DNA of 64,000 nucleotides from positions 50 to 64,049 of the forward strand of contig JADFXX010000012.1 of assembly GCA_015233335.1 (NCBI GenBank), given 5' to 3'. Source of the stretch: Candidatus Omnitrophota bacterium (GTDB lineage Bacteria; Omnitrophota; Gorgyraeia; Zapsychrales; Fredricksoniimonadaceae). Position 1 is the first letter of the stretch. Each line of letters starts with the position of its first letter. The position numbers and the translations under genes are program-made. A model generated the notes under the pieces. The model was not told the DNA's origin, did no database searches, and worked only from the letters and a program-made list of their open reading frames with translations. Of this stretch, positions 1-43,105 are shown in pieces.

Positions 1-210
1 CACCCATGGAAATAACGGAGGAAAATGGCACAAAAACATCCCTAACATGTCTTTGTTAAGATGCGGGTTCTCAAAAAGACGGGCCATGATCAAATAGGCG
101 ACAGAATCCTCTTCTAAGTTAATCCCCCATGGGGATGTGGCTATAAGAAGCAGGCTGACGCCTGCAAGCGAGAGAATGATCAACAAAATAATAAAAAAAT
201 TCTTTCTCAT
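1..210 (-). CDS. GT-C (ArnT/PMT_2-like) membrane glycosyltransferase, first 70 codons of a further tandem copy; gene runs off the window start
   Basis: nt 1-240 repeat nt 1558-1797, i.e. the 5' end (ATG complement at 208-210) plus the 30-bp spacer of the 241..1767 gene. Confidence 0.6.
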   Translation of the reverse strand, partial: MRKNFFIILLIILSLAGVSLLLIATSPWGINLEEDSVAYLIMARLFENPHLNKDMLGMFLCHFPPLFPWV

Positions 211-240
211 GTTCGTATGAAAATGCCCCCAATCGTCTCG

Positions 241-1767
241 TTATGGCACATCAAAAATCGATGCATACTTGTCTTGAGCAATTAAACGCAGGGGAATCCT
301 TTCCTGCAAAGCCTTGATCGGCTCAACATATTCGTTCATCCAGGCCTCATTAAAATAAACCAATAGGCCTTTATTGATTTGAATGTCCCTGTGCATTTGA
401 GACAGCTGGCTTAAATACTTGTCATTCTTAACCCAAGAAAACGGATTTTTAACAACGGGGATCATGGACGATGTCTTTCCCCCAAGAATATAGATCACCG
501 GAAGTTTATTGCTATAAATAGGCCTTCCCATTGGCGTCGACTTTACCTTCCAAATGCTGTAAGAAGCCCTGCACGGATCAGTCGTGTATTCATCTCCGAA
601 ATAATATTGGTGCGCTAAGCATCTTGCTGATCCGGCCATATAAAATAAAAAGAAATACGTGACAATGATTTTTCCGATATCCCTTTTAAGTGAAGAAGGA
701 TTTTTATACAAGAGATCAGATAGGCCTTTACAAATCATCATTAAGAAAAGTATATGTACGGGCATAAGGTAGCGCTCCAGACATTTAAGGCGCTCGCTTA
801 AGAGCAGACCCGCATCATAAAATGAGGCTGCGAGCACAAAACACAAAATATACAGGCCTATAAATGCTGCCCCAAGGATGGAAAGTTTAGAAAAATTGGC
901 ACGTTTCCGGAAAAACAATCTACTCAGACAACAAGCTATCCCTATCCCGAATAAAAGTGCCTTTTCATTTGAAGAAACAGGCATCTGCGGGGCAAGAAAC
1001 CACCCACAAAACTTAGCGGCCAAATCTCTAAAAAACACCAAATCAACCGGATGAAAAGCAAAATGTCTCTGCAAGGGAGAATCTTCGATATAGCTCAAGC
1101 GGGTATAGAGTAATAAACAAAGACAAGGGGTAAAAACAAAAACAGCGGCATGAATACACCTGTTTATAATGCCCTTCCCTTGATTAAGGAATAAAATCCC
1201 GAACAGGCCCGTTGCGACCATTGGCACCCCTGCGAATCTCGTCATCACAGCTGACGCGGCAATCATGGAACTCAGTATTAAAACAGGCCATCTGGGATTC
1301 TTGAGATACTCCATGAATAACAACAGCCATATCAGCATAAAGAAGATAAACAACGGCTCGCTCATCGCTTTTAAATGGATATCCACAACATCCGGCGCCG
1401 ATAGCATCAATAATGCCGCAGACAATCCCAGCCACGCAGATCTGGTATATTTCTTTGTCAGAATGCCGAAAAGCAGGATATTAAGGCCGAAAAGTGCCGA
1501 GTTCATTAAGCGTGCCCCTTGCAGGGGGTCCACACCAATCACGTGCCACCGGGAAAGCACCCATGGAAATAACGGAGGAAAATGGCACAAAAACATCCCT
1601 AACATGTCTTTGTTAAGATGCGGGTTCTCAAAAAGACGGGCCATGATCAAATAGGCGACAGAATCCTCTTCTAAGTTAATCCCCCATGGGGATGTGGCTA
1701 TAAGAAGCAGGCTGACGCCTGCAAGCGAGAGAATGATCAACAAAATAATAAAAAAATTCTTTCTCAT
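241..1767 (-). CDS. Polytopic membrane protein, GT-C fold glycosyltransferase-like (ArnT/PMT_2-type), copy A
   Basis: 508-aa ORF with many hydrophobic segments. Acidic motif NLEEDSVAY lies after the first TM helix, as in ArnT/PMT-type enzymes. Family call is pattern recollection, not a search. Confidence 0.6.
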   Translation of the reverse strand: MRKNFFIILLIILSLAGVSLLLIATSPWGINLEEDSVAYLIMARLFENPHLNKDMLGMFLCHFPPLFPWVLSRWHVIGVDPLQGARLMNSALFGLNILLFGILTKKYTRSAWLGLSAALLMLSAPDVVDIHLKAMSEPLFIFFMLIWLLLFMEYLKNPRWPVLILSSMIAASAVMTRFAGVPMVATGLFGILFLNQGKGIINRCIHAAVFVFTPCLCLLLYTRLSYIEDSPLQRHFAFHPVDLVFFRDLAAKFCGWFLAPQMPVSSNEKALLFGIGIACCLSRLFFRKRANFSKLSILGAAFIGLYILCFVLAASFYDAGLLLSERLKCLERYLMPVHILFLMMICKGLSDLLYKNPSSLKRDIGKIIVTYFFLFYMAGSARCLAHQYYFGDEYTTDPCRASYSIWKVKSTPMGRPIYSNKLPVIYILGGKTSSMIPVVKNPFSWVKNDKYLSQLSQMHRDIQINKGLLVYFNEAWMNEYVEPIKALQERIPLRLIAQDKYASIFDVP

Positions 1768-1797
1768 GTTCGTATGAAAATGCCCCCAATCGTCTCG

Positions 1798-3324
1798 TTA
1801 TGGCACATCAAAAATCGATGCATACTTGTCTTGAGCAATTAAACGCAGGGGAATCCTTTCCTGCAAAGCCTTGATCGGCTCAACATATTCGTTCATCCAG
1901 GCCTCATTAAAATAAACCAATAGGCCTTTATTGATTTGAATGTCCCTGTGCATTTGAGACAGCTGGCTTAAATACTTGTCATTCTTAACCCAAGAAAACG
2001 GATTTTTAACAACGGGGATCATGGACGATGTCTTTCCCCCAAGAATATAGATCACCGGAAGTTTATTGCTATAAATAGGCCTTCCCATTGGCGTCGACTT
2101 TACCTTCCAAATGCTGTAAGAAGCCCTGCACGGATCAGTCGTGTATTCATCTCCGAAATAATATTGGTGCGCTAAGCATCTTGCTGATCCGGCCATATAA
2201 AATAAAAAGAAATACGTGACAATGATTTTTCCGATATCCCTTTTAAGTGAAGAAGGATTTTTATACAAGAGATCAGATAGGCCTTTACAAATCATCATTA
2301 AGAAAAGTATATGTACGGGCATAAGGTAGCGCTCCAGACATTTAAGGCGCTCGCTTAAGAGCAGACCCGCATCATAAAATGAGGCTGCGAGCACAAAACA
2401 CAAAATATACAGGCCTATAAATGCTGCCCCAAGGATGGAAAGTTTAGAAAAATTGGCACGTTTCCGGAAAAACAATCTACTCAGACAACAAGCTATCCCT
2501 ATCCCGAATAAAAGTGCCTTTTCATTTGAAGAAACAGGCATCTGCGGGGCAAGAAACCACCCACAAAACTTAGCGGCCAAATCTCTAAAAAACACCAAAT
2601 CAACCGGATGAAAAGCAAAATGTCTCTGCAAGGGAGAATCTTCGATATAGCTCAAGCGGGTATAGAGTAATAAACAAAGACAAGGGGTAAAAACAAAAAC
2701 AGCGGCATGAATACACCTGTTTATAATGCCCTTCCCCTGATTAAGGAATAAAATCCCGAACAGGCCCGTTGCGACCATTGGCACCCCTGCGAATCTCGTC
2801 ATCACAGCTGACGCGGCAATCATGGAACTCAGTATTAAAACAGGCCATCTGGGATTCTTGAGATACTCCATGAATAACAACAGCCATATCAGCATAAAGA
2901 AGATAAACAACGGCTCGCTCATCGCTTTTAAATGGATATCCACAACATCCGGCGCCGATAGCATCAATAATGCCGCAGACAATCCCAGCCACGCAGATCT
3001 GGTATATTTCTTTGTCAGAATGCCGAAAAGCAGGATATTAAGGCCGAAAAGTGCCGAGTTCATTAAGCGTGCCCCTTGCAGGGGGTCCACACCAATCACG
3101 TGCCACCGGGAAAGCACCCATGGAAATAACGGAGGAAAATGGCACAAAAACATCCCTAACATGTCTTTGTTAAGATGCGGGTTCTCAAAAAGGCGGGCCA
3201 TGAGCAGATAAAAAACTGAATCCGCATCTAAGTTAGCTCCCCATAGGGATGTGGCTATAAGAAGCAGACTGACACCTGCAAGCGACAAAATGCCCAGTAA
3301 AATAATAAAAGAATTCTTTTTCAT
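1798..3324 (-). CDS. Polytopic membrane protein, GT-C fold glycosyltransferase-like, copy B
   Basis: 508 aa. Identical to copy A from residue 42 onward, with 9 substitutions in the first 41 residues (loop motif NLDADSVFY). Confidence 0.6.
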   Translation of the reverse strand: MKKNSFIILLGILSLAGVSLLLIATSLWGANLDADSVFYLLMARLFENPHLNKDMLGMFLCHFPPLFPWVLSRWHVIGVDPLQGARLMNSALFGLNILLFGILTKKYTRSAWLGLSAALLMLSAPDVVDIHLKAMSEPLFIFFMLIWLLLFMEYLKNPRWPVLILSSMIAASAVMTRFAGVPMVATGLFGILFLNQGKGIINRCIHAAVFVFTPCLCLLLYTRLSYIEDSPLQRHFAFHPVDLVFFRDLAAKFCGWFLAPQMPVSSNEKALLFGIGIACCLSRLFFRKRANFSKLSILGAAFIGLYILCFVLAASFYDAGLLLSERLKCLERYLMPVHILFLMMICKGLSDLLYKNPSSLKRDIGKIIVTYFFLFYMAGSARCLAHQYYFGDEYTTDPCRASYSIWKVKSTPMGRPIYSNKLPVIYILGGKTSSMIPVVKNPFSWVKNDKYLSQLSQMHRDIQINKGLLVYFNEAWMNEYVEPIKALQERIPLRLIAQDKYASIFDVP

Positions 3325-4307
3325 GCCCTATCTGCCATAGAATCACGGCATCCATTGCGCCTATCTGGATTTTTTGAGAACAACCAGATGTTGCTCTTTT
3401 TCATTTCATTATAGCGACGGCATTGTGTGCAGGGAATGTCCTCCCTTGGTCCTTTTTGGCCTCGCAACATCGCTCTGGCATAATTCATCTTTTCATTATT
3501 TAACACTTCGATCAAATTCTCTTTAAGCGCATTGCCGTAGTCCCCCCAATAATTTCTGGAGCATCCCAAGACTCTGCCGTCGCAATTGATCTGGGGATTG
3601 GCCCATAACTCATAACATGTATTCTTGATAAAATAAGGCTTTTTGTATTTCTCCTGATATTCTTTCCGGCTCACAGCCCCGATTCCTGAAAGCTTCCTGA
3701 CCCGGTCTTTATTTCTGACCGATGAAAAATCACCGTATGGAAGCTTCACCTGAAATCCCATGCCGAGTTTATGGGCCATTTGACGGGCCTTTATAATTTC
3801 ATGTTCATTATGCTCAAATACGATGAACTGCCAATGCAATACCGGCAAGGTGGAGCGGTACTCGGCCTTAAATTCATTGATTTTTTTGATGTTGGCGATG
3901 ACCGTGTCAAAATCGCCGCCTTTCCTATAAATTTTATATGTTGCACGACTGGACCCGTCGATCGAGCAGCTGATAAAACCAAAACGATATTTCACGAGAG
4001 CTTCAAGCATGTCTTCCTTGACTGTGTTGAGATTAACTCCATTACCCGCATTTAAGACAATTTTCTTCTGGTAGGCATACTTTGCGATTCTAAGCAGATC
4101 GCGATTTAAAAAAATTTCACCCCAATTGCTTAATTCGATACTGCGTATCCAGGGATTAGAATCTACGATCTTCTTGAAATTTTCGAATTTAAGGATTTTA
4201 ATTCCGAGTTCCCGGGCTATGCTGCCGTCGGTATTCGGACAGGCAGGACATTTCAGTTGGCAGGCAGTAGAGGCTTCAAGCCTGATTTTAGATGGATTTA
4301 TTTTCAT
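3321..4307 (-). CDS. Radical SAM protein with Cys-rich C-terminal (SPASM/twitch-like) region
   Basis: CQLKCPAC (CX3CX2C) at residues 16-23. C-terminal NCDGRVLGC ... CTQC cysteines. 4-nt overlap with the downstream gene. Confidence 0.8.
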   Translation of the reverse strand: MKINPSKIRLEASTACQLKCPACPNTDGSIARELGIKILKFENFKKIVDSNPWIRSIELSNWGEIFLNRDLLRIAKYAYQKKIVLNAGNGVNLNTVKEDMLEALVKYRFGFISCSIDGSSRATYKIYRKGGDFDTVIANIKKINEFKAEYRSTLPVLHWQFIVFEHNEHEIIKARQMAHKLGMGFQVKLPYGDFSSVRNKDRVRKLSGIGAVSRKEYQEKYKKPYFIKNTCYELWANPQINCDGRVLGCSRNYWGDYGNALKENLIEVLNNEKMNYARAMLRGQKGPREDIPCTQCRRYNEMKKSNIWLFSKNPDRRNGCRDSMADRA

Positions 4308-4315
4308 TCTATGAT

Positions 4316-6601
4316 CTATGCTCCCGACGGTCTTTCATTTCTTAATGACTGTAAATGAAATGCTCCTGAAGGGATTTGTATCAAATAAACCTTGGTGTAC
4401 TGGTAACGGATGCTCCCATCCCGGTTTAATGCCCCAATAATATTTTCTGACAATTCTTTTTTGATAAGCCAACCCCTGCGGACAAGCTCCTCTACATAGC
4501 CGCGCTCAAGCGCTTCCTGGGCATGCATCTCAGGGTCCTCGATCAATACCGCCCCCTGCAAACCGTTCTTGTGGGCCAATATCTGCGCCACCTTAAACAT
4601 CGCTGTATAAGCCTCAAAGGTATCTGCACCCAAGTTTTTCCTAAATAAATTATTGGTAGTAACCACCAACACCTGCCATCCTTTAGGAGATCTTTTTTCC
4701 GGTAAACCCATAATGCCCGACCTTATCAGTTGAATCAAGGCTTTGCCGAGAAACCGCCCCTTTTCATCTTTCAGGGCGATGATCCCAAAATGATATCGGA
4801 TATCGGCCACCTGCCGGTCCCTGTCATGCCAAATACAACCACCGGTTCCCATACATCCCATCAAATGAAAAAAGTCATCGAAAAACCCAATATATAAATT
4901 CAGGGCGTCAATCTGCTTTTGGAGCTTATAATTGGCCTGCTCGATCTTGATGTCATCGAGAATAGGCATAAACTGTTTCTTTAATACCTGTAAAAGTCGA
5001 ATGCTGAGTAAATTCCTGCAGATGCTTTCAGGTGAGCGGCCCGGATACCGGAACATCCAATCTCGTTGTTTGTCCTTGTCATTGAAATCTCTTTTTATTT
5101 GCCCCACCGTAGGTACGCGATGATCAGCGCAGACCCTGTCTAGATCTTCATTAGATATCATTTCAACGGCCTTGCCTGCGTTAATAAAAACCTCCCTGCT
5201 CCTGACCACTTTCTGCCAGCCTCCTCCTAGCAAAACAGCCCATCTGCCCAGCCATTCCAGATTGCTACCGTCCTCCCGGGGAATGGCGATGAGATCAAAC
5301 CGTTGCGCTCCGGTTGATTGGAAGATCATCTCGAGTAATACCACTTGGTCCATCACTCTTAATTCCTGATTCCTCAAAATACGGTTAAATACTTCTTGGA
5401 TCTCGGACCGTCCGCTGTCCTCCCGTGCCATTAAAGACAATCTTTGATTAAGACGGTCCCTGTGAGCAGCCTTATCTTCAGCCCCCTCATAGACTATTGC
5501 CGTTTTCGAAAAAGATGCCCTATACAATTCACGCATCCCTTCATCCACCTCTTGTGACCAATTCTCACGCCTTTGTTCAAGCGTATGTTTTAACCTCTGG
5601 GCCATATGGCTAAAATCCCAAAGCGTTATATCTTTCACAGGAATATATCTGCTTAAGATCGCCAGGTCATCTGCAATCGGGCCGTCCGTGCCCCAAAAGT
5701 CTCCCCAGGCAATATCACCGTTCACCTGACGCTCTATGTCAATTTTAAGCCTTTCAATGGATGAAGGATCATGCTGATGCTTTAAAAAGGACTGGAATAA
5801 CTCATATTTCATCATGCCCAAACCCGCCCTATAATAACCTTCAATCCCGTCTTTAAACTCATCCCATTGCTCTATACTCCATTTTGAAAAACCGCCTTTT
5901 TGGGCCATGACCTCAAAGACAGCGTACACTTCCTGTGGAGCTAGACGATACCACTCTCGAGAGATCCATATGATCAGTGATAACAATGGATCAAATGTCC
6001 CCTGTTTGATCGTTTCCTTCACAATCATGTTAAAACCTTCTGGGGCAGGACTTCCCATAACCTTGAGGACTGAAGTCAAAGCGCCCTTAAATGGCAGGGC
6101 CTGCCTCAATGGCGCCAGATCATTCGCCGTCAGACAGATATTCTTCAAATATCCCAGAACAATGGGGGCATCCTCATGAACAGTATCCAGAAGCTTCCTT
6201 AATTGATCCGCTTCCGCCAAAAATATCCTGACGTCTGAAAATTGACATGCATGTCCATAATCCAATTGATCAAATAGGTCCTGCTTGAATCGTTTGGCCT
6301 GATTGTACCGGTTCTCGATATATATCCTTTGTCCCAGTTTTACGACAGAGCCTTCAGCGAGCAGTTCCTTGACCTTTGCTGCACCTGCCAGCGCATCCTT
6401 AAGAAGAGGTTCGTTCACACTGCCCGCGACCATCCGGCGCAATGCGCCGATCCCGATAACAAAAAATTGCCACTCCCTGTGATTAACACTGGCCGGCTTA
6501 CCCTGCTTTTTTATTAAAACGTTCAAATCTTCCAAGAATACTCCCCTATTGATAATCCATATAAAACCAATCCCGTGGGCCTTCGGCCTCTCCTGATCCA
6601 C
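4316..6601 (-). CDS. Large hypothetical protein (761 aa), no motif recognised
   Basis: Long uninterrupted ORF inside the operon. The ATG start overlaps the upstream gene by 56 nt. An alternative TTG at 6535 is preceded by AGGGGAG. Confidence 0.55.
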   Translation of the reverse strand: MDQERPKAHGIGFIWIINRGVFLEDLNVLIKKQGKPASVNHREWQFFVIGIGALRRMVAGSVNEPLLKDALAGAAKVKELLAEGSVVKLGQRIYIENRYNQAKRFKQDLFDQLDYGHACQFSDVRIFLAEADQLRKLLDTVHEDAPIVLGYLKNICLTANDLAPLRQALPFKGALTSVLKVMGSPAPEGFNMIVKETIKQGTFDPLLSLIIWISREWYRLAPQEVYAVFEVMAQKGGFSKWSIEQWDEFKDGIEGYYRAGLGMMKYELFQSFLKHQHDPSSIERLKIDIERQVNGDIAWGDFWGTDGPIADDLAILSRYIPVKDITLWDFSHMAQRLKHTLEQRRENWSQEVDEGMRELYRASFSKTAIVYEGAEDKAAHRDRLNQRLSLMAREDSGRSEIQEVFNRILRNQELRVMDQVVLLEMIFQSTGAQRFDLIAIPREDGSNLEWLGRWAVLLGGGWQKVVRSREVFINAGKAVEMISNEDLDRVCADHRVPTVGQIKRDFNDKDKQRDWMFRYPGRSPESICRNLLSIRLLQVLKKQFMPILDDIKIEQANYKLQKQIDALNLYIGFFDDFFHLMGCMGTGGCIWHDRDRQVADIRYHFGIIALKDEKGRFLGKALIQLIRSGIMGLPEKRSPKGWQVLVVTTNNLFRKNLGADTFEAYTAMFKVAQILAHKNGLQGAVLIEDPEMHAQEALERGYVEELVRRGWLIKKELSENIIGALNRDGSIRYQYTKVYLIQIPSGAFHLQSLRNERPSGA

Positions 6602-27218: not shown

Positions 27219-27986
27219 TTACTGCCCATTGGGCTTGGGCGACGGCACCGGGGATGCCGCTTCCGGAGCACTGCATGCTTCGCGCATCTCGCCATTTTCG
27301 ATATCGGCGCAACTGCCGATCCCCTTGATAACTCCAAACCAAGTATAAAAATCTTTTTCTTCCTGCTGTCGCGTCCTTTCTCCCGCAAGAATACGACACC
27401 CGGACAAAGCCAGATACCAATCACTATTCCATTGGGCGCCATATGCACCCACGAAATCTTTTATATAATGGCCACATGAACCCGCGTCTCCCTTTAAAGC
27501 TAAAAGGTATGCCCCCCTTTTGACCAGAATATCTTCCTTGATCTCCGGATTGGACATATGCCCCAGTAATGCCTGCCTTGTGATAGTGCTGGGGGATTTT
27601 ATCAATGAACATAATGACGCCTCTATTTGAGCCTGAACGTCTTTAGTGTATCCCCCACCCAATCCCTCAAAACAGTCCATCGGTTTTTTGCTTGTGTCTG
27701 TTCCTGCACATACCTCCTGGGCACACCGCCAGGATTTAATACCTTTCGCCTCTTTTACACAGATCATATCGTTTTGGCACAGGGACAAATCCCCGTTCAC
27801 CACTTCATACGTCTTAAGGTCCAATTGATCAACGGCCAATTTTCTTGAGACGTCTGCCCCATTGGCAGCGGACATGGCCGGAGTCTGATTTTTAGCAACC
27901 TGTTGGGCCGAACTCACAGCGTTGACACTAGTCATGAACAACACAACAAGAAAAAAATTAAGCACTACGGAAGATCGGAAGCTCAT
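27219..27986 (-). CDS. Secreted Cys-containing hypothetical protein
   Basis: N-terminal signal-like MSFRSSVVLNFFLVVLFMTSVNAVSSAQQ; AGGTG Shine-Dalgarno sequence 7 nt upstream; Pro-rich tail. Confidence 0.6.
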   Translation of the reverse strand: MSFRSSVVLNFFLVVLFMTSVNAVSSAQQVAKNQTPAMSAANGADVSRKLAVDQLDLKTYEVVNGDLSLCQNDMICVKEAKGIKSWRCAQEVCAGTDTSKKPMDCFEGLGGGYTKDVQAQIEASLCSLIKSPSTITRQALLGHMSNPEIKEDILVKRGAYLLALKGDAGSCGHYIKDFVGAYGAQWNSDWYLALSGCRILAGERTRQQEEKDFYTWFGVIKGIGSCADIENGEMREACSAPEAASPVPSPKPNGQ

Positions 27987-31407: not shown

Positions 31408-31938
31408 TTGATGAAGCTGTACGTTATTATTCTTTCATTGTTGTTGCAGGGTTGGTTGTTAGTACCTTGTGTGAAGGCCTCGGAAGCAGACTTTGAATGG
31501 AACGATGCTGTACGGTCTGCCCAACAGGGTGAGCCTGATTTTGCTTTTATGGGCTTTCAAACAATCACACAAGCATACCCTAATTCGAAATACGCCCTTG
31601 CCGCAGAATTTGCCCAGGCAGAATACTTCTTTCTCCAGAACAATTTCGATCTAGCCGCCAGTGCCTTCAAAAATTTCTTTACCAAATATCCCCAGCGTAA
31701 GGAAGCTCTGGCAGCCTTAGGTTATCTTTTTAAAATAGCACAGATCCAAAAAACCCCGAATGAGGCCAAACAATACCGCCACAGAGCGGCATCCTTTCAA
31801 CAGCTTGCGTTTATCTTTAATGAAAAAAAATCATTTGAGTTTCTCTCCGGGTTTGGACACAAGCACAAACTGGTATTAACCATAGATAAAATGGAACTTT
31901 ATGTTAACGGCAAACTATTTTCAGAGGTCCCCTTCTAA
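31408..31938 (+). CDS. Exported TPR-like repeat protein (YbgF/CpoB- or BamD-like)
   Basis: Signal-like N-terminus. Two ..YP.S.YA..A......F......A...F......YP... repeats typical of TPR-type envelope proteins. Confidence 0.4.
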   Translation: MMKLYVIILSLLLQGWLLVPCVKASEADFEWNDAVRSAQQGEPDFAFMGFQTITQAYPNSKYALAAEFAQAEYFFLQNNFDLAASAFKNFFTKYPQRKEALAALGYLFKIAQIQKTPNEAKQYRHRAASFQQLAFIFNEKKSFEFLSGFGHKHKLVLTIDKMELYVNGKLFSEVPF

Positions 31939-33778
31939 ATGGAAACTCGCGATCATTTTCATTTTGGTTATTTCCGCGATGATCACGGCCTTTTCTTTTT
32001 CCATCAACCGCTATCTTCCCAAGTATGCGCTCGCCTTTTGCGATATCTTAAACCAGCAGTTGGCGCTTAAAGTATCTTTTAGCTCTATCCATTACCGTTT
32101 TCCCATCTACCTGATCCTAAAAAATGTCAAAGTTTGCGTCAACTCTGAAAACGCCCCAATGCTTGCGGCCCATCGGATAGTCATGAGTTTGAGCATTCCC
32201 TTTTCTGCATCAGGGCCTTCTTTTAATAATGCGGTATTGGATCATACGACGATGGACTTGGAGTCTTTAAAGAATTATTGGAGAAAGTATCGCACCCCTT
32301 TAAGTGCATGGACCCATACTCTTCCCAGAGAAAATTCTGGAATTATTATACACAACGGAGAGCTTTACCTGAAGGGGCTCGACAGCAAGCCGTTTCCTTT
32401 TGAAGTTGATTTCAGCCGTAAACAGGATCATGTCAGCGCTCAAGGATTCTGGATCAATAAAGACAAATTCAATTTCCAATTATACGGGGATCTGGCGCAA
32501 ACGAGTTTCAATTTGAGCAAACTTTTCATAGAAGGCGGGCCATCTTCCATCAATCTCTGGGGCAAATGGCAGGAAAACACCATCGATTGGAAAGGATTTA
32601 TTCTTTATAAACAATTCTATATCCTGGATATCCATGGGCATTTAAATATAGCCGATACGGACATTGTCCTTAAAAGTCTGTCCTTTTCTGTCAATGGGAA
32701 TGATATGACGGCACAAGGGAGTTGTTCAAAATTAAAACTCTTTTCATGTGAAGGGGACATGACGCTCGCAAGGCAAAAACAACATCCTAGTTATGATGAC
32801 CCTTTGAAAAAGATTAGTTTGCACCTAAGCTCACAAAATACCCCCAAAGACATTTTATTTAACGGACAGGCTGACCTGTACTTTCTTTTTGACCCCCATT
32901 ACCCTTGGCCTCTAAAAAGCATGCATGTTAATTTTAAAAACTTAAAAACGCGTCTACTCAATACGAATTTCCTAAAATTAAAAATCGACCATATAGACGC
33001 CTCTTGGATGAGTCCGGATGAGCATAAAATACCCGTGGAAAATCTTTTAGCCAGTGTCCATTTAGACCAGCCGCATAACGCCATCATTGGTTTGTCAGCA
33101 CGGATGTATCAGGGGCGTTACCGCGGCCGGGTTTTTATTGATACGGCGACTACGCCTTGGATCATCAAAGGACAGGGGAAAATCGACGGAACAGATATCA
33201 GCCGTTTGGGCCGCACCTTTTTTGTGTTAGAGCAATACCGCGGCATTTTAAACAGCCGCTTTGATTTTCAGTCATCAAAAAGTATTCAGCTTAACGGGAC
33301 TATGGTCATCCGTCACGGTGATTTTAATGACCTTCATTTCTTGCCGTGGTTGGCCAATCTGCTGCAAATGCCGGCTCTAGGGCACCTTCAAAACGCAGAA
33401 TTGTCCTGCCGTTTCAAAATCGATGAGGATTCAAAAAATTTGGATGATTTTAAACTGCACACGGATGATCTTGATTTGAGCGGATTTTTTTATCTTGATG
33501 CCCAGGATCTGGTTTCAAGCCGGATTTCTGTGCGCTTCTCGAAAACACTTCTTGGCCAATCCCCCATCGGACGCAATCTCATGGGCTTAGTCCGGGAGGC
33601 ATGGGCTCTGCCTTTTGAATTTAAGCTTTCCGGCAATATCTATAAAATGAATTTCCAATGGGACAAATCCCCATTGAAAGACAAAGTACGCCAGCACATA
33701 TTCCCTTTTATGGAAAAAATAATTGATCAGCAGGTAGAGTCTCCCCCGTCGGTAATCAACGAGCGTCCCGGCTTTTAA
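31901..33778 (+). CDS. Membrane-anchored large hypothetical protein
   Basis: 625-aa ORF with a single N-terminal TM segment (WKLAIIFILVISAMITAF); no catalytic motif recognised. Confidence 0.5.
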   Translation: MLTANYFQRSPSKWKLAIIFILVISAMITAFSFSINRYLPKYALAFCDILNQQLALKVSFSSIHYRFPIYLILKNVKVCVNSENAPMLAAHRIVMSLSIPFSASGPSFNNAVLDHTTMDLESLKNYWRKYRTPLSAWTHTLPRENSGIIIHNGELYLKGLDSKPFPFEVDFSRKQDHVSAQGFWINKDKFNFQLYGDLAQTSFNLSKLFIEGGPSSINLWGKWQENTIDWKGFILYKQFYILDIHGHLNIADTDIVLKSLSFSVNGNDMTAQGSCSKLKLFSCEGDMTLARQKQHPSYDDPLKKISLHLSSQNTPKDILFNGQADLYFLFDPHYPWPLKSMHVNFKNLKTRLLNTNFLKLKIDHIDASWMSPDEHKIPVENLLASVHLDQPHNAIIGLSARMYQGRYRGRVFIDTATTPWIIKGQGKIDGTDISRLGRTFFVLEQYRGILNSRFDFQSSKSIQLNGTMVIRHGDFNDLHFLPWLANLLQMPALGHLQNAELSCRFKIDEDSKNLDDFKLHTDDLDLSGFFYLDAQDLVSSRISVRFSKTLLGQSPIGRNLMGLVREAWALPFEFKLSGNIYKMNFQWDKSPLKDKVRQHIFPFMEKIIDQQVESPPSVINERPGF

Positions 33779-35436: not shown

Positions 35437-36084
35437 TTATATTAAAGTGAAGGATTGTTGACTTTTCTCAACAACAAGAAAGCCATCCAGCGGTTCTACT
35501 TTTAGAGAGTACTGTGACAAATTAAAAAGCACCCAATCTTTCGACTGAGTGCTTTTTAATTTGGTTGCGGGGACAGGATTTGAACCTATGACCTCCAGGT
35601 TATGAGCCTGGCGAGCTACCGGGCAACGCTCAAGAGCGCTGAATTTAAATGACTTGCAACAAATATTGCCACTATTTGCCACTACCTTCTTGATTTTACG
35701 AACACATTTCCCAATATTTTCCTTTATTTGAAAATCCCAAAACCGCAGAACTATCCATCCCTCTTTGTTTAATTGTTTTGTGCATATCTTATCCCTCTGG
35801 ATGTTCCTTTTTATTTTAGGAATCCAATAATCTGTGTTACTCTTAATCTTCGTGGTTAATTTTCTAAATTCATAGCCATGCCAAAAACTAGAATCACAAA
35901 AAACGATCACTTTTCTCCTAGGCCATACAAAATCTGGTCTCCCAATGATAGTCTTTACATTCCTTCTATACCCTCTAATACCACATTTCCATAATTCTTT
36001 GGACATCCCCTCTTCCATTTTTGTTTTAGATGAAGGAATGCATGACATTATATGCGATGTAACCCTAGCGGATCTCTTCTTCAT
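35437..36084 (-). CDS. vsr: Very-short-patch repair endonuclease (Vsr) with a read-through C-terminal extension
   Basis: GRPDFVWPRRKVIVFCDSSFWHG ... YWIPKIKRNIQRD ... GWIVLRFWD motifs. The Vsr-like part ends near residue 135. The ORF then continues through attR into flanking DNA. Confidence 0.8.
   Translation of the reverse strand: MKKRSARVTSHIMSCIPSSKTKMEEGMSKELWKCGIRGYRRNVKTIIGRPDFVWPRRKVIVFCDSSFWHGYEFRKLTTKIKSNTDYWIPKIKRNIQRDKICTKQLNKEGWIVLRFWDFQIKENIGKCVRKIKKVVANSGNICCKSFKFSALERCPVARQAHNLEVIGSNPVPATKLKSTQSKDWVLFNLSQYSLKVEPLDGFLVVEKSQQSFTLI
35562..35624 (-). repeat. attR: duplicated 3' 63 nt of tRNA-Met (not a functional tRNA)
   Basis: Identical to 51883-51945. The sequence diverges where the D-arm/5' half of the tRNA should be. 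Confidence 0.9.
35666..35684 (+). repeat. Two TTGCCACTA direct repeats, candidate arm-type recombinase binding sites (attR side)
   Basis: TTGCCACTA at 35666-35674 and 35676-35684. The same doublet occurs at 51699-51718. Confidence 0.5.
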
Positions 36085-36139
36085 AAAATATTATTAAAGA
36101 CCTTTTGCATTCATAAACTTTATGTATTAAATTAAACCT

Positions 36140-36844
36140 ATGCCTGACATGCTATCTCAAATAGAAAAAGATCGTCTAATCAAAGGATTGACATCAGTTT
36201 TTGCAGTCCCTTTTATAGATGATATAGAAGATTTTATTTGGGAAGCTGTTTTTGCTTATGTAAAAAGTATCCCCATAGCAAAATTTAGAAATAAAAAATT
36301 ATTTGATGTCATTGACCCTATCCAAAAAAATGGCTGGTCAGTGAAAGCTTTGCAGTGGCGCGTGCATCCAGGAGTAGAATTTGAGTTGGTTGTGCAGCGT
36401 GCAGACATTATAAAAAAAGCTAAAGAACTGGGGTTCTCCCGCTTATCCTTAAAATCTCCTGAAAAAGACCTCGGCGCGGCTCTGCTTAAACATTGGCATA
36501 AAAAAATCGAAGAAGACGTTGTAAGTCAAAACGTTATTAATAAAAAAATATGCGTTCTTTTGAAGTCAGAACACAGAGACAAATTTGCATTTTACGAAGA
36601 CGATGTTCTCATCTACCAGCCCAACGATTTATCCTGGAAATGGACAGACAAGTCAAAAACCGGACTTCAAGGCTTAAGAAAAAGCGACGGTTTCTGTATT
36701 TACCGTTGGTATCCTAATCAAAAACAATTCTTTGAAAGATTCGTCCTTCCGCAAAATGCTTTTATATTTGAACTTAACCTAAAGAAAATTACCATAGAAG
36801 AAATCATCGACTTACTAGAGACCCACCTAAACAGCATTCCATAA
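36140..36844 (+). CDS. Putative type II restriction endonuclease (assigned by position only)
   Basis: 234-aa ORF lying between vsr and a C5-MTase, convergent with the MTase and overlapping it by 41 nt. No catalytic motif confidently recognised. Confidence 0.4.
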   Translation: MPDMLSQIEKDRLIKGLTSVFAVPFIDDIEDFIWEAVFAYVKSIPIAKFRNKKLFDVIDPIQKNGWSVKALQWRVHPGVEFELVVQRADIIKKAKELGFSRLSLKSPEKDLGAALLKHWHKKIEEDVVSQNVINKKICVLLKSEHRDKFAFYEDDVLIYQPNDLSWKWTDKSKTGLQGLRKSDGFCIYRWYPNQKQFFERFVLPQNAFIFELNLKKITIEEIIDLLETHLNSIP

Positions 36845-37946
36845 TTCTTTCAGACAAAACCGTCATTAAAAGTGGCGGAACCGCATTTCCTATCTGGCCA
36901 GCTTTCTGCGTAAACGTTCCTGTAAATCTAAAATCATCCGAGAAGGACTGTATGCGAGCGGCCTCTCGCATAGTTAATGTTCTAACTTCTCTTGGGTGAG
37001 AATATCTGCCAGACCCTGGATGAAAAACCCATCGAGTTATTGTTGGAGACACCATTTCAAAATCTAATCTTCCATAGGCTCCGCTATAACCACCAAGGGG
37101 CCTAATTCTTGCTGGTAAGTCTTTAATGCCTTGTCCTGGTTTTAAAGATTTGATTCTTTGATACTGCAAACTTTTCAATTTTCTAGTAGCGTGATCCCAT
37201 AAAATATGTGAATCTCGACGCATAAATTCCTGATATTCATTCTGAGGAGTTTTATCATAATCCATTGATTCAGCCCCCTCTCCGTTTTCTAAAACAGGCA
37301 GATCAGATATTGCATCCCAAGCCGAAACATATTTCTTTTGTTCTCCAAAAAACGTATCTCTTTCTTCCTCTCCATGGGTCTTTTCTGGGAAATGCGGATC
37401 AATCCCCGTATTTGAAGCAAAAAACACGCACCGCCTTCTCTTTTGAGGCACTCCATACTCATGCGTTTGAATAACCTTCACGGCAACTTTATATCCCATT
37501 TTGGACAATACACTTATTATTTCTTCCCTAACTTCTCCATTATAGGCATTATTTATTTCTGCAACATTCTCCATAATTACCACTTTGGGACGAAACCAAT
37601 CAACAAATAACAAATATTCTTTAAATAAAAGATTCCTCGGGTCTTCCATAAAACGATATGCAGCGGGAACATTCTTAGAAAACCCCTGACAAGGAGGCCC
37701 TCCAATTATGCAATCTAAATCTGTTTTCTTAAGAATAGGAATCTTTTTTAATAAATCCCCAGGCTTTAATTCTGTCAAATTTGCGTTAATAGCTATCGCT
37801 TCAGGGTGATTTAATTGGAAGGTATTTAAAGCGGGTTCCCAAGTATCTATACCCGCCACAACATTGAAGCCGTTTTTATGCAGCCCCCAAGACATCCCAC
37901 CACAACCGCAAAAAAGATCTAAAACGGTAAATTTTTTCATATGCAA
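36804..37946 (-). CDS. DNA (cytosine-5)-methyltransferase
   Basis: Motif I DLFCGCGG, motif IV GGPPCQGFS, motif VI MENV, motif VIII QKRRR, motif X GNAVPP. Confidence 0.95.
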   Translation of the reverse strand: MHMKKFTVLDLFCGCGGMSWGLHKNGFNVVAGIDTWEPALNTFQLNHPEAIAINANLTELKPGDLLKKIPILKKTDLDCIIGGPPCQGFSKNVPAAYRFMEDPRNLLFKEYLLFVDWFRPKVVIMENVAEINNAYNGEVREEIISVLSKMGYKVAVKVIQTHEYGVPQKRRRCVFFASNTGIDPHFPEKTHGEEERDTFFGEQKKYVSAWDAISDLPVLENGEGAESMDYDKTPQNEYQEFMRRDSHILWDHATRKLKSLQYQRIKSLKPGQGIKDLPARIRPLGGYSGAYGRLDFEMVSPTITRWVFHPGSGRYSHPREVRTLTMREAARIQSFSDDFRFTGTFTQKAGQIGNAVPPLLMTVLSERIMECCLGGSLVSR

Positions 37947-38195
37947 TGCCCCATTCTTTTTTAATTTTATAGTTACTTCACTGTTCTAACAAGCAGTATT
38001 TTGCCTACATTTTTTTAATCCTTCCAGCCTCCTTTCCTCCGCAGCTTTAAAATGTGCATGGATCTCCCAATGATCACATTTCGAATCACGGTCATTGTTA
38101 TAATTTTGAGATTTCTAACTGTGAGGCAAAGGCCTTCCCTAAGGGGATAAAATATGGAGTTGATACACACATGGTTGGGGAAACCAGCGTTTGAA

Positions 38196-39287
38196 TTATA
38201 ACACCGCCAATTTTGTAATAGCAAGGGCTTTTTGCCTCCCTTCTTCTGTCGTCTTGACGTAAGACATAAAACTTTCGATGTCCACATGGCCAGTCACGGC
38301 CATTGCATCCTTAAGATTAATCCCTGAATTTAGAAGCCGATTTACAACGAAGTATCTAAAGCAATGCGGAGAGATTTCACTTAAATTATATCGCTCGCAA
38401 ACCCGCTTTAAGAAATCCCGATAGGTATTGGAACAAATCTTCCGCTGTGCAAAATTGGTGAATAGGCATTTCTGCTCCGGGTGCTTGTTTAAAGCTCTTT
38501 TAACAATCCCGGCCAGTTCATCATCCATTGGGACTTCTCCCATGTCCTTTGTCTTGGTAATCTCTGGCCGCACGACAATCTTTATCGGCATTTTTTTATC
38601 GTCAAGAAGCACATCACTCTTTTCATATAGTGTCGCCTCTTCAATACGACGGCCAACCCTAACCAGAAACATTGTCAATTCTTCATAGCTTGGGTCTCCG
38701 ACGACCGCATTTAAAATCGTTTTAATTTCATAATCCGTCGGCAAATGTTTCTTCTCAGGTCTGGCCAACCTTTGCGGTATCTTCTCAACCTTCTTAAAGG
38801 GATTTTCACTGATGAAGCCGTACTCTTTAAACAGCTTAAAAATTGCCCTTAACTTTGAAATATCGGTATTAATCCCCGAAGGGGATTTGTCCTTTAAAGA
38901 CAACAAATATTCCTTGTACCGATTGCCTATATCGGCTGTCACCTGATTAACCAATGTTACAGTCGAATACTTCTGTCTTAAAAAATCTGCCAGATGATTA
39001 AAAATGCACTTCGACCTCTGTCTGGTTTTGGCCTGAAGGATTTTCTCAGTCTGACTCAGGTAATAATCAATGGCGGCCTTAAGTGAAACCCCGGCAGCTA
39101 TGCGTTCGATTGAGCGTAGCCCGGCAGTGGCCATACGCTGCAAACGTATTGCATAGGCCTCCGCCTCGGTGTTCGCTTTTATGGTTTCACTATACCTTTT
39201 ACCATTTACGTAATAGTTAATCTCAAACGAACATTCCCCACGCTGACGAACACCGGCATACCTCTTATATCTGCGCTTGTTTGTCAT
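38196..39287 (-). CDS. int: Tyrosine recombinase/integrase
   Basis: VGRRIEE (box I Arg), HCFRYF (HxxR), TGHVDIESFMSYV (His...Tyr). N-terminus RYKRYAGVRQR is typical of phage integrases. Start taken at MTNKRR (ATG at 39287). Confidence 0.9.
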   Translation of the reverse strand: MTNKRRYKRYAGVRQRGECSFEINYYVNGKRYSETIKANTEAEAYAIRLQRMATAGLRSIERIAAGVSLKAAIDYYLSQTEKILQAKTRQRSKCIFNHLADFLRQKYSTVTLVNQVTADIGNRYKEYLLSLKDKSPSGINTDISKLRAIFKLFKEYGFISENPFKKVEKIPQRLARPEKKHLPTDYEIKTILNAVVGDPSYEELTMFLVRVGRRIEEATLYEKSDVLLDDKKMPIKIVVRPEITKTKDMGEVPMDDELAGIVKRALNKHPEQKCLFTNFAQRKICSNTYRDFLKRVCERYNLSEISPHCFRYFVVNRLLNSGINLKDAMAVTGHVDIESFMSYVKTTEEGRQKALAITKLAVL

Positions 39288-39459
39288 CCTTGAGATGTTT
39301 CCGTTCAAATTCCACCCTAGCATCATGTGGAATACGGTAATGGCGACCGATTTTAAGGGCCCCTTTGAACTGGTTTTCCCGAATCATTTTCCAAACCGTG
39401 GTCTTGGGAATCTGGTAAAGCTGTGATAAAACCTCTGGCGTATAAAACGTGCTTGTCAT
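39265..39459 (-). CDS. xis: Excisionase/AlpA-like helix-turn-helix DNA-binding protein
   Basis: YTPEVLSQLYQIPKTTVWKMIRENQFKGALKIGRHYRI matches the excisionase-family HTH pattern; lies directly upstream of int and overlaps it. Confidence 0.7.
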   Translation of the reverse strand: MTSTFYTPEVLSQLYQIPKTTVWKMIRENQFKGALKIGRHYRIPHDARVEFERKHLKDDKQAQI

Positions 39460-39695
39460 GGCATTTCCTCCAAATTTATAGAACTTTTTTGATACCAATC
39501 ACGGTCAAGGACATTTTCCCCTTCGCTACAATAATCTATTAACCCAAGATGCCTTAGGCAATCAATGCACCAAACACGATAATCATATAAAAACACTTCT
39601 TTTACTACTACGCCCCTTTTATTAACTAACAAAACTTCACATTCACCGCATGATCGTTCTAAATGATGTCTTACTCTGCCGCTATTCATAAACAT
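39456..39695 (-). CDS. Small Cys-rich hypothetical protein (zinc-finger-like)
   Basis: CGEC ... CIDC cysteine pairs; 4-nt overlap with xis. Confidence 0.4.
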   Translation of the reverse strand: MFMNSGRVRHHLERSCGECEVLLVNKRGVVVKEVFLYDYRVWCIDCLRHLGLIDYCSEGENVLDRDWYQKSSINLEEMP

Positions 39696-39704
39696 GCCCC
39701 CTTT

Positions 39705-40013
39705 TTAGATTGTTCCTTCCATTGCCTCAGCGAGCGTATGGTCGCCGAAATAGAGATCCCGCTCAATGCCAAGACCTAAACGACCTTTAACAGCTTCTAA
39801 CTCATCCAAACTAAAATAACCCATCTCTACCTCATGGCCCCGAACAAGCCCAAAGAAAATACGCTCAACCGGGTCATACTCTGTCGCGTACCATGTCCAA
39901 CTGCCGCATGGGTCAAAAAATTTTGCGATAATTTTTACCTCCTTTGGTTTTTTGTCCTCCATCGCATAAAGCGGTGGGAACCGCGCTTCAAGCTCTTTTG
40001 TTATTAATTCCAT
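39705..40013 (-). CDS. DUF2958-like protein
   Basis: PPLYAMEDKKPKEVKIIAKFFDPCGSWTWYATEYDP..FFGLV.G.E.E.GYFSLDEL matches my recollection of the DUF2958 consensus. Confidence 0.5.
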   Translation of the reverse strand: MELITKELEARFPPLYAMEDKKPKEVKIIAKFFDPCGSWTWYATEYDPVERIFFGLVRGHEVEMGYFSLDELEAVKGRLGLGIERDLYFGDHTLAEAMEGTI

Positions 40014-40116
40014 TTCGTCCTCCCGTTTAGATACCCCTTACAATTAGGCCAAAAACGATAGTAGTGGCCCCTACATTGCGACCAAATATGCCCCACCCCC
40101 TTCCCCCCTTTGTTCA

Positions 40117-40344
40117 CTAACTGGAACCTTGTTTAAACCGAGAGAACTCCTCAAGGGTGTACTCCTTTTCTAATTCAAAATCGTTAAGCTCATCGCTCTT
40201 TATAATTGCCCTACATCTCGGGACATAAAACTCAAATAATATAATTTTCCCTTCTTCCGGCCCTGCCGCCATGGCCCGGAAAAGAATCTCCCACTCCTCG
40301 ATGGTACATTTTAAATTGTCACAATCCATCCCAAACAGTTCCAT
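40117..40344 (-). CDS. Hypothetical small protein
   Basis: 75-aa ORF co-oriented with the island genes; no motif. Confidence 0.35.
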   Translation of the reverse strand: MELFGMDCDNLKCTIEEWEILFRAMAAGPEEGKIILFEFYVPRCRAIIKSDELNDFELEKEYTLEEFSRFKQGSS

Positions 40345-40460
40345 ACATCCCCCCTTTTTGATCTAACCCGTATAACTGCATTACGTTAAAAGGCTTCACT
40401 ATCTTAATTTGACTGTTCCCTTCCTTTTTTTAATCCGTTTCAGGCAACCGGATGTTTAGT

Positions 40461-40640
40461 ACAACAGGGGCAAAACAAAATGGCATATAAAGGCAAAACA
40501 GCAAAACAAACAGCGACATGTAGCTAAAAACAACAAAAAATGCGACCTGAAACAACAAACAGCCACGAAAAGCCACAATAAGGAAAAACAGTAAAACAAA
40601 CAGACACACACAGGCAAAAAGATAGCAACAGGCAAAACAA
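40461..40640. repeat. A/C-rich, T-poor iteron-like repeat region (candidate island origin or regulatory region)
   Basis: Only 11 T in 180 nt (hand count). GGCAAAAC at 40469, 40492 and 40631, with variant GGCAAAAA at 40613. AAAACAAACAG at 40503 and 40593. Confidence 0.45.
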
Positions 40641-40786
40641 AACGCTATTTAACGCTACAAATTTTTCCTTTTCTTGGATCTTTGTCCTCCATTCCTAATC
40701 GGGACTTTGGGACGTTCGGGACGTTTTGTAACAAGTTTTCAGCACAGCATCACTTAATTTCACCACTTCAACTTAGACGGCTTTAA

Positions 40787-43105
40787 TCAACCTCCCGAAC
40801 CTCCAGACCTCCCTTTAACTTTTACTTTTATTGTTTTGATTTTTTCAACCATCTTTTGATCCGATGAAGCAACCCCCGTGTCACAGACTTCCAAAAAATA
40901 CGCAGTCGTATGATTGATTGCTCTGCCAGCTTTTCTGACCTTTAAAGTTAAAAGCAGCTCTTTGTGCCTGATTTCAAAGGTGCGATCTTTGAGCCTCGAT
41001 AAAAAGAATCCAAACCGTGTGCGTTGACTGCGTTCATTTGTTGAGGGCCCCAAATCGATATCAATTTCCTCATTGTCCTGAATTAGGTCGTACAAATTAC
41101 CAGTCATAACCTCGTCCGTTTTATAAAGGTCGTACCAAAAATAAACAAAAGCCTTCAGATTCTCTTTTTCAGAATTCACTTCCGAGTAGAAATCCTTTAA
41201 ATTTTCTAGAAATCCGTCAACCTTGACTGTTTCGAGCAAACCTCCACCCTTCGCAGACCAATCTTCAAACATGCCGAGAGATTTTTTTGATCTCGGCATC
41301 CCCCTGCTAATCCAAAATTGAACGATTGTGCATATGGCCCAAATCAACTGGGCCCTATTTTTACTGACCCATTCCAGTAAATTGGGATGTTTGAATGTAT
41401 TTGGATTCCGTAAATGAGGGTTCTCCATTCGTGCGTCCATTCTCAATCTGATTGATCGCCGGGTAATTTCATCTGACAATTGAGGATTGTTGGCGGTAGC
41501 AATGAAGATCGCCCTGACTAAAATCTGAATGTGCTCAGACTTTCCAAGCAATCGATCGCCCCACTGGGTTTCAGTCAACAATGACGCAAGAAGCCCTGAG
41601 CGTAATTCTTTGCTTAAGTTATCGATGACCACAATTTGCGGGTAGTTGCGAAGGACAGATGTAACGCGCTTTCTAAATTCTTCCTCATTGTGGCTCTCCG
41701 TCAAAGAACTGTAATTGTGGGTTCCTGTACAGATAGTTGCTATGCTCTGTACCAAGAGTGTTGCACCTGTTCCCGGTGTACTTTTTTCGATTAAGAAGAG
41801 CGGGCAAGGTCCTTTTATCATCTCTCTAATAAAAGGAAGCATCAGTAGCAAGAATGCATGTGCTAAATCCGAATGACTGATGAAGGGAAAATCAACAAAC
41901 AGGTTTTCCAAAATAAATTGCTTAGCCTTTTCAACCTCTTGCCACGACGGACTTTGACTGACTGGAACGATTTGAAGAAGGTCAGGATAACAATGGTATA
42001 GACCGCTTCGCCTGCTATATCCCTGCTGGATTTCTAAAATACCGTCTTTGGTGAATAGTGGCCCCTGACAAATTCCGTTTAATAGAGGGAATTCCAGTTG
42101 TGGGGTGGCCAAAAGATCGCGAATGTGATTCAAAGAAGGAATTGCAAGGGTCAATTCACCAAATTTGTCATAGGCCATCCAAGCGGTCAGTCTACAAAGA
42201 TGGTATCGAAGCCGGTATTCATCTAACGGTGTAACCAAGGGCCTACCTTCAGGGCCAAGTTCTACCCTGACAGGTTGATTGCCTTGTAAAAAAATGAACG
42301 GGGCCTGACTGTTAGCCTTGGCTATCGATTCCAACGCCTTTTGAGAAAAATAAACCAAATCATTCTTGGGCAGGACAATTTCCGGTATTCTTTCAAACTC
42401 AAACTTTTTGGCGTTCTTGACAAGTTCATCAAAGGCTTTAATATCATTCTTAACAACAAACTCATCTGGCTTTTCCCCCACAGGCATATCAATTACATAA
42501 ACCTCTGCGCCAAGTTCAACCAATGTTTGAGCAAGACGATCTTGAGCGAGAAGAACTTGGGGATTAAGCGTCTTATCGCCGTCGTAGCAAATGAACGCTT
42601 TGCGTCCTTTAAATTTAATCCTTTTAAGTTCTCTTGCGGGTCTTTTTTGATTAAGGAAACCCCAAACTCCGCTGAATCCAATCGCGAAACGCTCATTCTG
42701 CGTTAACGCCAAGGCTTTCTTTTCGCCCTCGACGAAAAATAGTGGAATGTTTGCATCATCTATGATTTCAAAAGTTCTCTTGGGAATGTACGGCATTACC
42801 CTGACATTTCTGGGCCGCATGTAACGCTTCTTCTTGCCGTCCTTCCCTGTCAGAGGAACGTCCAAACGGATGTTAAAAACTTCCTGTGAGTATTTGCCTA
42901 TCTCCTCAAGGTATGGAAAACGTAAACCACTGCCAATCGGGGCTCGAAGCCCCAAACAGTTCATCACCTCTTTTTCATTTACATAACGTACATCATTTTC
43001 AACGATTGTCTGACATATCAACCCCGACACTTTGTTCAAATCATAAAATTGTTGCGGATTTACAATACCTTTTAATTCAGCTGGAACAGACCCATATATT
43101 TTCAT
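40787..43105 (-). CDS. Toprim (DUF3854-like) + P-loop NTPase replication protein (primase/helicase-like)
   Basis: FFVEGEKKALAL and ICYDGDK (Toprim Glu and DxD). Downstream EKSTPGTGATLL (Walker A-like) and IVVIDNL (Walker B-like). Confidence 0.6.
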   Translation of the reverse strand: MKIYGSVPAELKGIVNPQQFYDLNKVSGLICQTIVENDVRYVNEKEVMNCLGLRAPIGSGLRFPYLEEIGKYSQEVFNIRLDVPLTGKDGKKKRYMRPRNVRVMPYIPKRTFEIIDDANIPLFFVEGEKKALALTQNERFAIGFSGVWGFLNQKRPARELKRIKFKGRKAFICYDGDKTLNPQVLLAQDRLAQTLVELGAEVYVIDMPVGEKPDEFVVKNDIKAFDELVKNAKKFEFERIPEIVLPKNDLVYFSQKALESIAKANSQAPFIFLQGNQPVRVELGPEGRPLVTPLDEYRLRYHLCRLTAWMAYDKFGELTLAIPSLNHIRDLLATPQLEFPLLNGICQGPLFTKDGILEIQQGYSRRSGLYHCYPDLLQIVPVSQSPSWQEVEKAKQFILENLFVDFPFISHSDLAHAFLLLMLPFIREMIKGPCPLFLIEKSTPGTGATLLVQSIATICTGTHNYSSLTESHNEEEFRKRVTSVLRNYPQIVVIDNLSKELRSGLLASLLTETQWGDRLLGKSEHIQILVRAIFIATANNPQLSDEITRRSIRLRMDARMENPHLRNPNTFKHPNLLEWVSKNRAQLIWAICTIVQFWISRGMPRSKKSLGMFEDWSAKGGGLLETVKVDGFLENLKDFYSEVNSEKENLKAFVYFWYDLYKTDEVMTGNLYDLIQDNEEIDIDLGPSTNERSQRTRFGFFLSRLKDRTFEIRHKELLLTLKVRKAGRAINHTTAYFLEVCDTGVASSDQKMVEKIKTIKVKVKGRSGGSGG

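Follow-up and report, generated by a model that had tools for sequence, protein, structure and literature searches.

The window analysed here is a stretch of 64,000 nucleotides (positions 50 to 64,049, forward strand) from contig JADFXX010000012.1 of a Candidatus Omnitrophica metagenome-assembled genome (MAG). It begins within a tandem array of genes for a GT-C glycosyltransferase, all of which are on the minus strand. The first gene in the array, copy B (1798–3324, MBF0504801), encodes 508 amino acids, and its ATG overlaps the stop codon of the upstream radical SAM (S-adenosylmethionine)/SPASM gene (3321–4307) by 4 bases. Copy A (241–1767, MBF0504800), the second gene as deposited, is also 508 codons in length; it starts behind the stop codon of copy B and a 30-base spacer (1768–1797), and so the radical SAM/SPASM gene sets the upstream context of copy B apart from that of copy A. 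No promoter-like or terminator-like sites were found in the spacer. An identical second spacer (211–240) leads to copy 0 (1–210), the first 70 codons of a third gene, which is of A type and identical to copy A. No further paralogues of the GT-C gene and no silent cassettes were found elsewhere in the 64-kb window. Three terminator-like hairpins (1722–1707, 165–150 and 3279–3264) were dismissed; they lie inside the coding sequence of the first transmembrane helix (TM1), and their number is not above the shuffled expectation.

The repeat is very regular. When the window was compared with itself at a shift of 1557 bases, positions 1–1635 were the same as positions 1558–3192 except at one position (1180 versus 2737), and a repeat finder independently returned the same period. 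Tandem Repeats Finder gave no output, which is explained by its maximum period of 500, and the shift comparison was used in its place. The initial annotation, made by a model from the letters of the window and a list of its open reading frames (ORFs), had described a head-to-tail unit of 1557 bp with a 30-bp spacer, two copies that differ at one silent position over about 1.4 kb, and a further A-type copy running off the window start; all of this was borne out, and the N-terminal peptides that it gave are correct.

The differences between A and B are concentrated at the 5′ end of the gene. The variable segment (3193–3324 in copy B, 1636–1767 in copy A) covers codons 1–44, which encode TM1, a linker and the start of the first periplasmic loop; the A and B types share 81% base identity. 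Among its 132 bases, 25 differ, giving nine non-synonymous codons (2, 5, 11, 27, 30, 33, 34, 38 and 41) and 10 synonymous ones. Divergence had been reported as limited to the first 41 codons; this holds for the nine amino acids, the last of which is at codon 41, but the base differences extend to the third base of codon 44. From codon 45 through the stop, copy A is the same as copy B apart from one silent base, at Gln196, which is CAA in A (1180) and CAG in B (2737). The contrast between the two parts (25/132 versus 1/1395) is highly significant (Fisher p = 7e-27). By the Nei-Gojobori method, codons 1–44 have a synonymous divergence (dS) of 0.46 and a non-synonymous divergence (dN) of 0.14, whereas dS is 0.003 in codons 45–508. 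Because dS is so uneven along its length, the gene is a mosaic, composed of a very old 5′ part and a very young, near-identical body. The dN/dS ratio of the 5′ part, 0.31, indicates that purifying selection has acted on the predicted proteins.

Such an abrupt change of divergence between adjacent paralogues on the same strand is a hallmark of concerted evolution, and here the boundary falls between codons 44 and 45. Simple unequal crossing-over between two fully diverged paralogues, with its breakpoint at codon 45, was considered and rejected. Copy 0 is identical to copy A for 126 bases beyond the 5′ segment, 78 of them as DNA in the window and 48 only as protein; at 19% divergence, such identity has a probability of ∼3e-12. 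These 126 further bases therefore require either a stretch that the paralogues already shared or a loop made by the assembler.

Several lines of evidence bear on the identity of the encoded proteins. With Pfam, both copies matched PMT_2 (31.4 bits against a gathering cut-off of 26.1) and PMT (25.3–25.4 bits against 22.7). The AlphaFold2 model, built on 38 homologues, has a predicted local distance difference test score (pLDDT) of 89.4 and a predicted template modelling score (pTM) of 0.90; it contains the multi-helix membrane domain and the periplasmic domain of the GT-C fold. In a Foldseek search against the PDB, the top 22 matches (E ≤ 1e-3) were all GT-C enzymes, including STT3/OST, ArnT (5ezm and 5f15), PglB, DPY19, Pmt4 and ALG9/12. 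Taken together, Pfam, the AlphaFold2 model and the Foldseek matches confirmed the GT-C assignment of the initial annotation; judged by profile and predicted fold, A and B are genuine GT-C glycosyltransferases. The GenBank name, 'family 39' (CAZy GT39 protein O-mannosyltransferase), does not appear secure, since the family is remote by sequence: a family-profile search of PDB sequences gave Pmt4 as its sole match, with a marginal E of 0.0011 over ∼110 residues, and an NCBIfam search with the GT-C protein gave no match. In the Foldseek fold scores, ArnT and STT3 rank above the PMTs.

Like ArnT (CAZy GT83; 5ezm/5f15), STT3 and PglB, the model has the overall GT-C fold (Foldseek E of 6e-8 to 1e-5; TM-score of 0.58–0.59 to ArnT) and a C-terminal soluble α/β domain. 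In broad layout the model and these enzymes also agree: two short juxtamembrane helices come after TM1, and an Asp that is invariant in the family (D35) stands at the start of the first periplasmic loop. Different from the fold, the sequences are only 10–13% identical to those of ArnT, STT3 and PglB. Different also is the gene context: no arn-type genes (the ArnA/B/C/D/E/F context) were found among the scanned ORFs of at least 150 amino acids, the neighbours being radical SAM, carbamoyltransferase and asparagine-synthase-like genes and a GT1/GT28 fusion.

In the model, TM1 spans residues 3–24 and is followed by a linker (residues 25–33), a juxtamembrane helix (residues 34–45) and a second helix (residues 53–60); the latter two match the two juxtamembrane helices in the first periplasmic loop of ArnT (PMC7801869). 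By this model, the variable segment takes in TM1, the linker and, within the first periplasmic loop, the first juxtamembrane helix. The initial annotation had described the segment as including the acidic motif of the loop, and had named a position outside the predicted active-site loop as a finding that would speak against it; the model puts the segment over TM1 and the start of the loop, and this part of the claim stands. Its further suggestion was that homogenisation had spared this segment, which likely sets specificity. Such a reading supposes that gene conversion homogenises the body of the gene, and that selection keeps TM1 and the first loop distinct for donor or acceptor specificity, so that the copies are isoenzymes. 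In favour of this reading, the divergent stretch reaches into the first periplasmic loop, and two of its substitutions, E33D and E34A, directly precede the invariant Asp35. In GtlB, another bacterial GT-C enzyme, the acidic residues (Asp) of the first extracellular loop are essential (PMC5836110).

The conservation pattern points the other way. In an alignment of 38 family sequences, T25, G29, D35, S36, Y39 and A43 are each at least 90% conserved, and all of them are unchanged in A and B. D35, at the N-terminus of the helix 34–45 and directly past TM1, is found in 35 of the 38 family members and in both copies. All nine substitutions fall on freely variable columns; columns 33 and 34 are among the most variable of the alignment, and column 34 holds P, N, D, S, A, L, Y and E. 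Helical periodicity suggests that the changed positions of the helix 34–45 (34, 38 and 41) are on one face and the conserved positions (35, 39 and 43) on another. Three of the nine changes (positions 2, 5 and 11) are in TM1, distant from the loop. The dN/dS of 0.31 and the 10 synonymous codon changes are those of plain old divergence under purifying selection, and a single tract boundary in a single genome could fall at this position with no help from selection. As the conserved residues are kept, the changes occur only at variable columns and dN/dS is 0.31, a change of specificity between A and B is not supported by these comparisons, nor is the suggestion that the segment is held different as a specificity determinant. 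We regard selection for distinct specificities as very unlikely, and likewise an array of GT-C isoenzymes in which recombination keeps the body identical and selection preserves alternative TM1/first-loop 'heads'. A recombination tract that happened to start at codon 45 explains the pattern without selection.

Another process that could confine variation to one short segment of otherwise identical tandem units is programmed diversification of the N-terminus, by a diversity-generating retroelement or by cassette-type recombination. The substitutions are not of the kind that such a retroelement leaves; they are of all kinds, not adenine-specific, and half of them are synonymous. Neither a reverse transcriptase nor an invertase was detected among the 41 ORFs of at least 150 amino acids scanned with Pfam, three ORFs (187–224 amino acids) having been left unscanned. 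The sole integrase is 35 kb away, and the window holds no other copies or silent cassettes, with no separate search for inverted repeats having been made. The retroelement or cassette idea was rejected, and we consider programmed diversification extremely unlikely.

The position of the array at the end of its contig is important for the interpretation. Copy 0 corresponds to MBF0504799, a partial protein of 86 amino acids encoded on the 64,188-base contig. From the lengths of this protein and of the contig, it follows that the contig ends 48–50 bases past the window start, inside copy 0; the third copy is therefore cut by the contig itself, and the repeat reaches the contig end, as it would in an assembly loop. 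The end is located 126–128 bases after the last base that discriminates A from B (codon 44). The largest k-mer used by SPAdes is 127. Numerically, the distance fits k = 127; the default assembler settings stated in the likely source study do not back this value, and the fit serves as a lead only.

A second contig of the same MAG carries what may be the continuation. MBF0504798 (HQL14_06820), which directly precedes the array proteins in accession and in locus tag (HQL14_06825), is a 5′-partial paralogue of 321 amino acids at the end of a 66,331-base contig. Since it is the last gene on its contig and has no N-terminus, it must be on the minus strand, facing copy 0. Over residues 200–242 of A/B, it is identical at 42 of 43 positions (the exception is Thr222Ala); beyond, identity drops to ∼63%, which puts a second divergence boundary near residue 243. 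MBF0504798 also contains an 11-residue insert that is present in all relatives and absent from A/B. Residues 1–199 of A joined to the MBF0504798 fragment give a protein of 520 amino acids, and the closest relatives are 515–524 amino acids in length. Joining the two contigs in deposit order would rebuild one gene with ∼112 codons missing. Both contigs are therefore taken to come from a single scaffold that was broken within the repeat. Had the deposit simply ordered its contigs by length, such a match would arise by chance with odds of about 1 in 100 or lower. The start of the other contig (base 596–598 of the coding sequence) fits k = 127 only if it is base 596 and the silent third base of Val241 is the first further difference.

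Searches for the locus in other data returned little. Exact-protein look-ups for A, B and MBF0504798 gave no contig on record; two GTDB scans turned up at most a C-terminal remnant, in a different MAG; and scans of JGI metagenomes, with a protein profile and with the exact junction sequence, gave no match. In other assemblies, too, contig breaks coincide with genes of this GT-C family or lie beside them. One contig (CAIOPG010000019.1) holds, at its end (1–259), only a C-terminal remnant of a GT-C gene with upstream stop codons, and both contigs that bear the P0004 gene open with a truncated ORF, the gene itself following within a few hundred bases. The family may often have repeated paralogues.

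Given the place of the repeat at the contig end of a short-read MAG, the tandem arrangement itself might be false. In this explanation, there is one gene only, two strains that were assembled together each contribute an allelic 5′ end, and mis-assembly created the repeat; metaSPAdes is known to merge strain variants. However, upstream of the A-type start there is a GT-C stop codon with the 30-base spacer, where the B-type start has the radical SAM gene, and therefore a k-mer path derived from reads must join the end of a GT-C gene to an A-type start. A dS of 0.46 over 132 bases beside 1.4 kb of identity is unlike strain variation, and a third, different 3′ end is present in the same MAG. A single gene is very unlikely in our view. 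The robust elements are two different gene starts, each with an upstream context of its own, one head-to-tail junction and no fewer than two distinct 3′ parts. The initial annotation had offered an assembly artefact as its alternative. This alternative gains support with respect to the copy number, but not with respect to the existence of two distinct tandem genes.

The explanation that we favour, and consider quite probable, is that old tandem GT-C paralogues have been partly homogenised by recombination and lie within a repeat at the contig end that the assembly left unresolved. Homologous recombination between neighbouring copies, by gene conversion and possibly then by unequal crossing-over, would have made a long internal stretch identical, and the first 44 codons would lie outside the recombination tract and retain the old divergence. 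Both N-terminal variants are expected to perform the same chemistry, because the conserved residues of the catalytic loop are kept in both; this would be the transfer of a sugar from a polyprenyl-phosphate donor at the periplasmic face. The deposited near-perfect amplification of 2.08 units would be the path that the assembler took through the repeat. This path may be pictured as a cycle: it is entered through the B-type 5′ end, runs into the shared stretch (about bases 133–722 of the coding sequence), returns to its start by way of the A/B-type 3′ part, then the spacer, then the A-type 5′ end, and is left by the MBF0504798-type 3′ part. The final gene of the array is probably not another A; most likely, it would combine an A-type 5′ end, the shared stretch and the 3′ two-thirds represented by MBF0504798.

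Within this explanation of partial homogenisation, the chances of two genes and of three or more are about even. With one turn of the loop there would be two genes, B and the composite, which share a conversion patch of ∼0.6 kb, and the full-length A would be a product of the assembler. With two turns there would be B, a hybrid A and a composite third gene, the hybrid having arisen by unequal crossing-over within the shared stretch; because of Gln196 and Thr222, the crossover would be placed between bases 589 and 663. Two genes are favoured by the relatives, which have two paralogues per cluster, and by the instability of tandem duplications. Illumina short reads cannot span an exact repeat of 0.6–1.4 kb. 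In the likely source study of the MAG (Lin et al. 2020), Illumina HiSeq reads, metaSPAdes 3.13 and scaffold re-assembly by MetaWRAP were used (PMC7602337).

Several points weigh against this explanation. Assemblers of short reads tend to merge tandem copies instead of creating extra ones, which argues for at least the deposited number and, between the two cases above, favours three or more genes. With default settings, metaSPAdes goes up to k = 55, and the re-assembly would reach k = 127 only if the reads were 250 bases or longer; for reads no longer than 150 bases, the default is k = 55 or 77. Thr222Ala lies inside the supposed shared 127-mer at the start of the neighbouring contig, and needs either a collapsed bubble or base correction after assembly. 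The two contigs may have been listed by length (66,331 and then 64,188 bases), in which case their adjacency in the deposit is coincidental. The recombination history and the copy number are themselves deduced from the deposited sequences, and the origin of the MAG in the above study (PMC7602337) is likely but not proven.

Homogenised gene pairs of this type have well-known counterparts. The tufA/tufB genes and the rRNA operons are known examples of bacterial duplicates that evolve in concert through gene conversion or unequal crossing-over. Like those, the A/B pair has a sharp boundary between near-identity and old divergence, and its direct repeats are a substrate for RecA-dependent exchange. 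Different from tufA/tufB, A and B are known from one contig end of a short-read MAG, and the tract measures either ∼0.6 kb or ∼1.4 kb. Among GT-C enzymes, adjacent or paired paralogues occur in the mycobacterial embC-embA-embB cluster and in the Pmt1-Pmt2 subunits. Structures of such systems, 7bvc and 6p25, were among the Foldseek matches. The present family resembles these systems in having several GT-C paralogues side by side or paired, with two per cluster in the relatives. However, the emb and Pmt paralogues have diverged over their whole length, whereas A and B share a long base-identical stretch; and different from Pmt1-Pmt2, nothing indicates that the A and B copies form a complex. A further likeness is to the small bacterial GT-C class of GtlB/YfhO type and the three-component extracytoplasmic glycosylation systems (PMC5836110, PMC11127046). 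GtlB/YfhO-type enzymes have essential acidic residues in the first extracellular loop and decorate envelope glycans outside the cytoplasm (PMC5836110, PMC11127046). The A/B motif differs from theirs, being D-S-x-x-Y and not DxxD, and the scanned ORFs of the window included neither a recognisable partner GT2 polyprenyl-phosphate sugar synthase nor a GtrA-like flippase.

Related Omnitrophota contigs contain a similar cluster. In two of them (L001 and L002), there are two GT-C paralogues per cluster, 50–68% identical to each other and separated by other genes. One protein in each cluster departs from the Asp35-Ser36 of the family: P0005 (L001, 13159–14718) has Gln-Ser, and P0006 (L002, 10001–11560) has Glu-Gln. 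By analogy with heteromeric GT-C enzymes, P0005 and P0006 may be non-catalytic or altered partner subunits.

The GT-C array closes a mostly minus-strand operon of ∼26 kb (3321–29676), which is predicted to act on glycans; its remainder (4316–29676) is almost all on the minus strand. Of the 11 radical SAM genes in the operon, several also encode a SPASM or a B12-binding domain; the B12-binding domain is above the Pfam cut-off in two of them and just below it in one. It also holds a carbamoyltransferase, a plus-strand asparagine-synthase-like gene, an A24-like peptidase (a prepilin peptidase homologue), a U32 peptidase, a protein like adenylate-forming ligases, and a GT28/GT1/radical-SAM-SPASM fusion of 1108 amino acids. 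A Wza-like exporter is encoded nearby. Three ORFs have no Pfam match: one of 761 amino acids (4316–6601, minus strand), one of 255 (27219–27986, minus strand) and one of 625 (31901–33778, plus strand); the first two have no NCBIfam match either. The 761-residue ORF, just upstream of the GT-C array, has a radical SAM gene on either side. This uncharacterised, radical-SAM-rich glycan operon is a more interesting object than the GT-C repeat.

Two other regions of the window stand out. The region 36000–43105 contains a C-5 cytosine DNA methylase (36804–37946), a tyrosine integrase (38196–39326) and a DUF3854/AAA protein (40787–43105); the guanine plus cytosine (GC) content dips to 37% at 36–38 kb, coinciding with the methylase/integrase region. 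The region is probably an integrated mobile element. At 55215–63347, on the minus strand, there are two adjacent and very large ORFs, one of 1047 amino acids with a Laminin_G_3 domain and one of 1662 amino acids without a Pfam match; GC is ∼50% here, compared to ∼43% elsewhere in the window.

For users of the GenBank record, the practical consequence is that the number of gene copies it gives for this glycosyltransferase locus is probably wrong, and the gene structure perhaps as well. As biology, the locus would be a textbook case of recombination between neighbouring paralogues, which is an ordinary process and matters little beyond housekeeping. Were the alternative 'heads' preserved by selection after all, a cell or population in which the array grew, shrank or was reshuffled could thereby vary the sugar or the acceptor added to its surface glycan. 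Although nothing requires it, an array that truly varies in copy number could add to the heterogeneity of surface glycans in this uncultured, possibly magnetotactic lineage.

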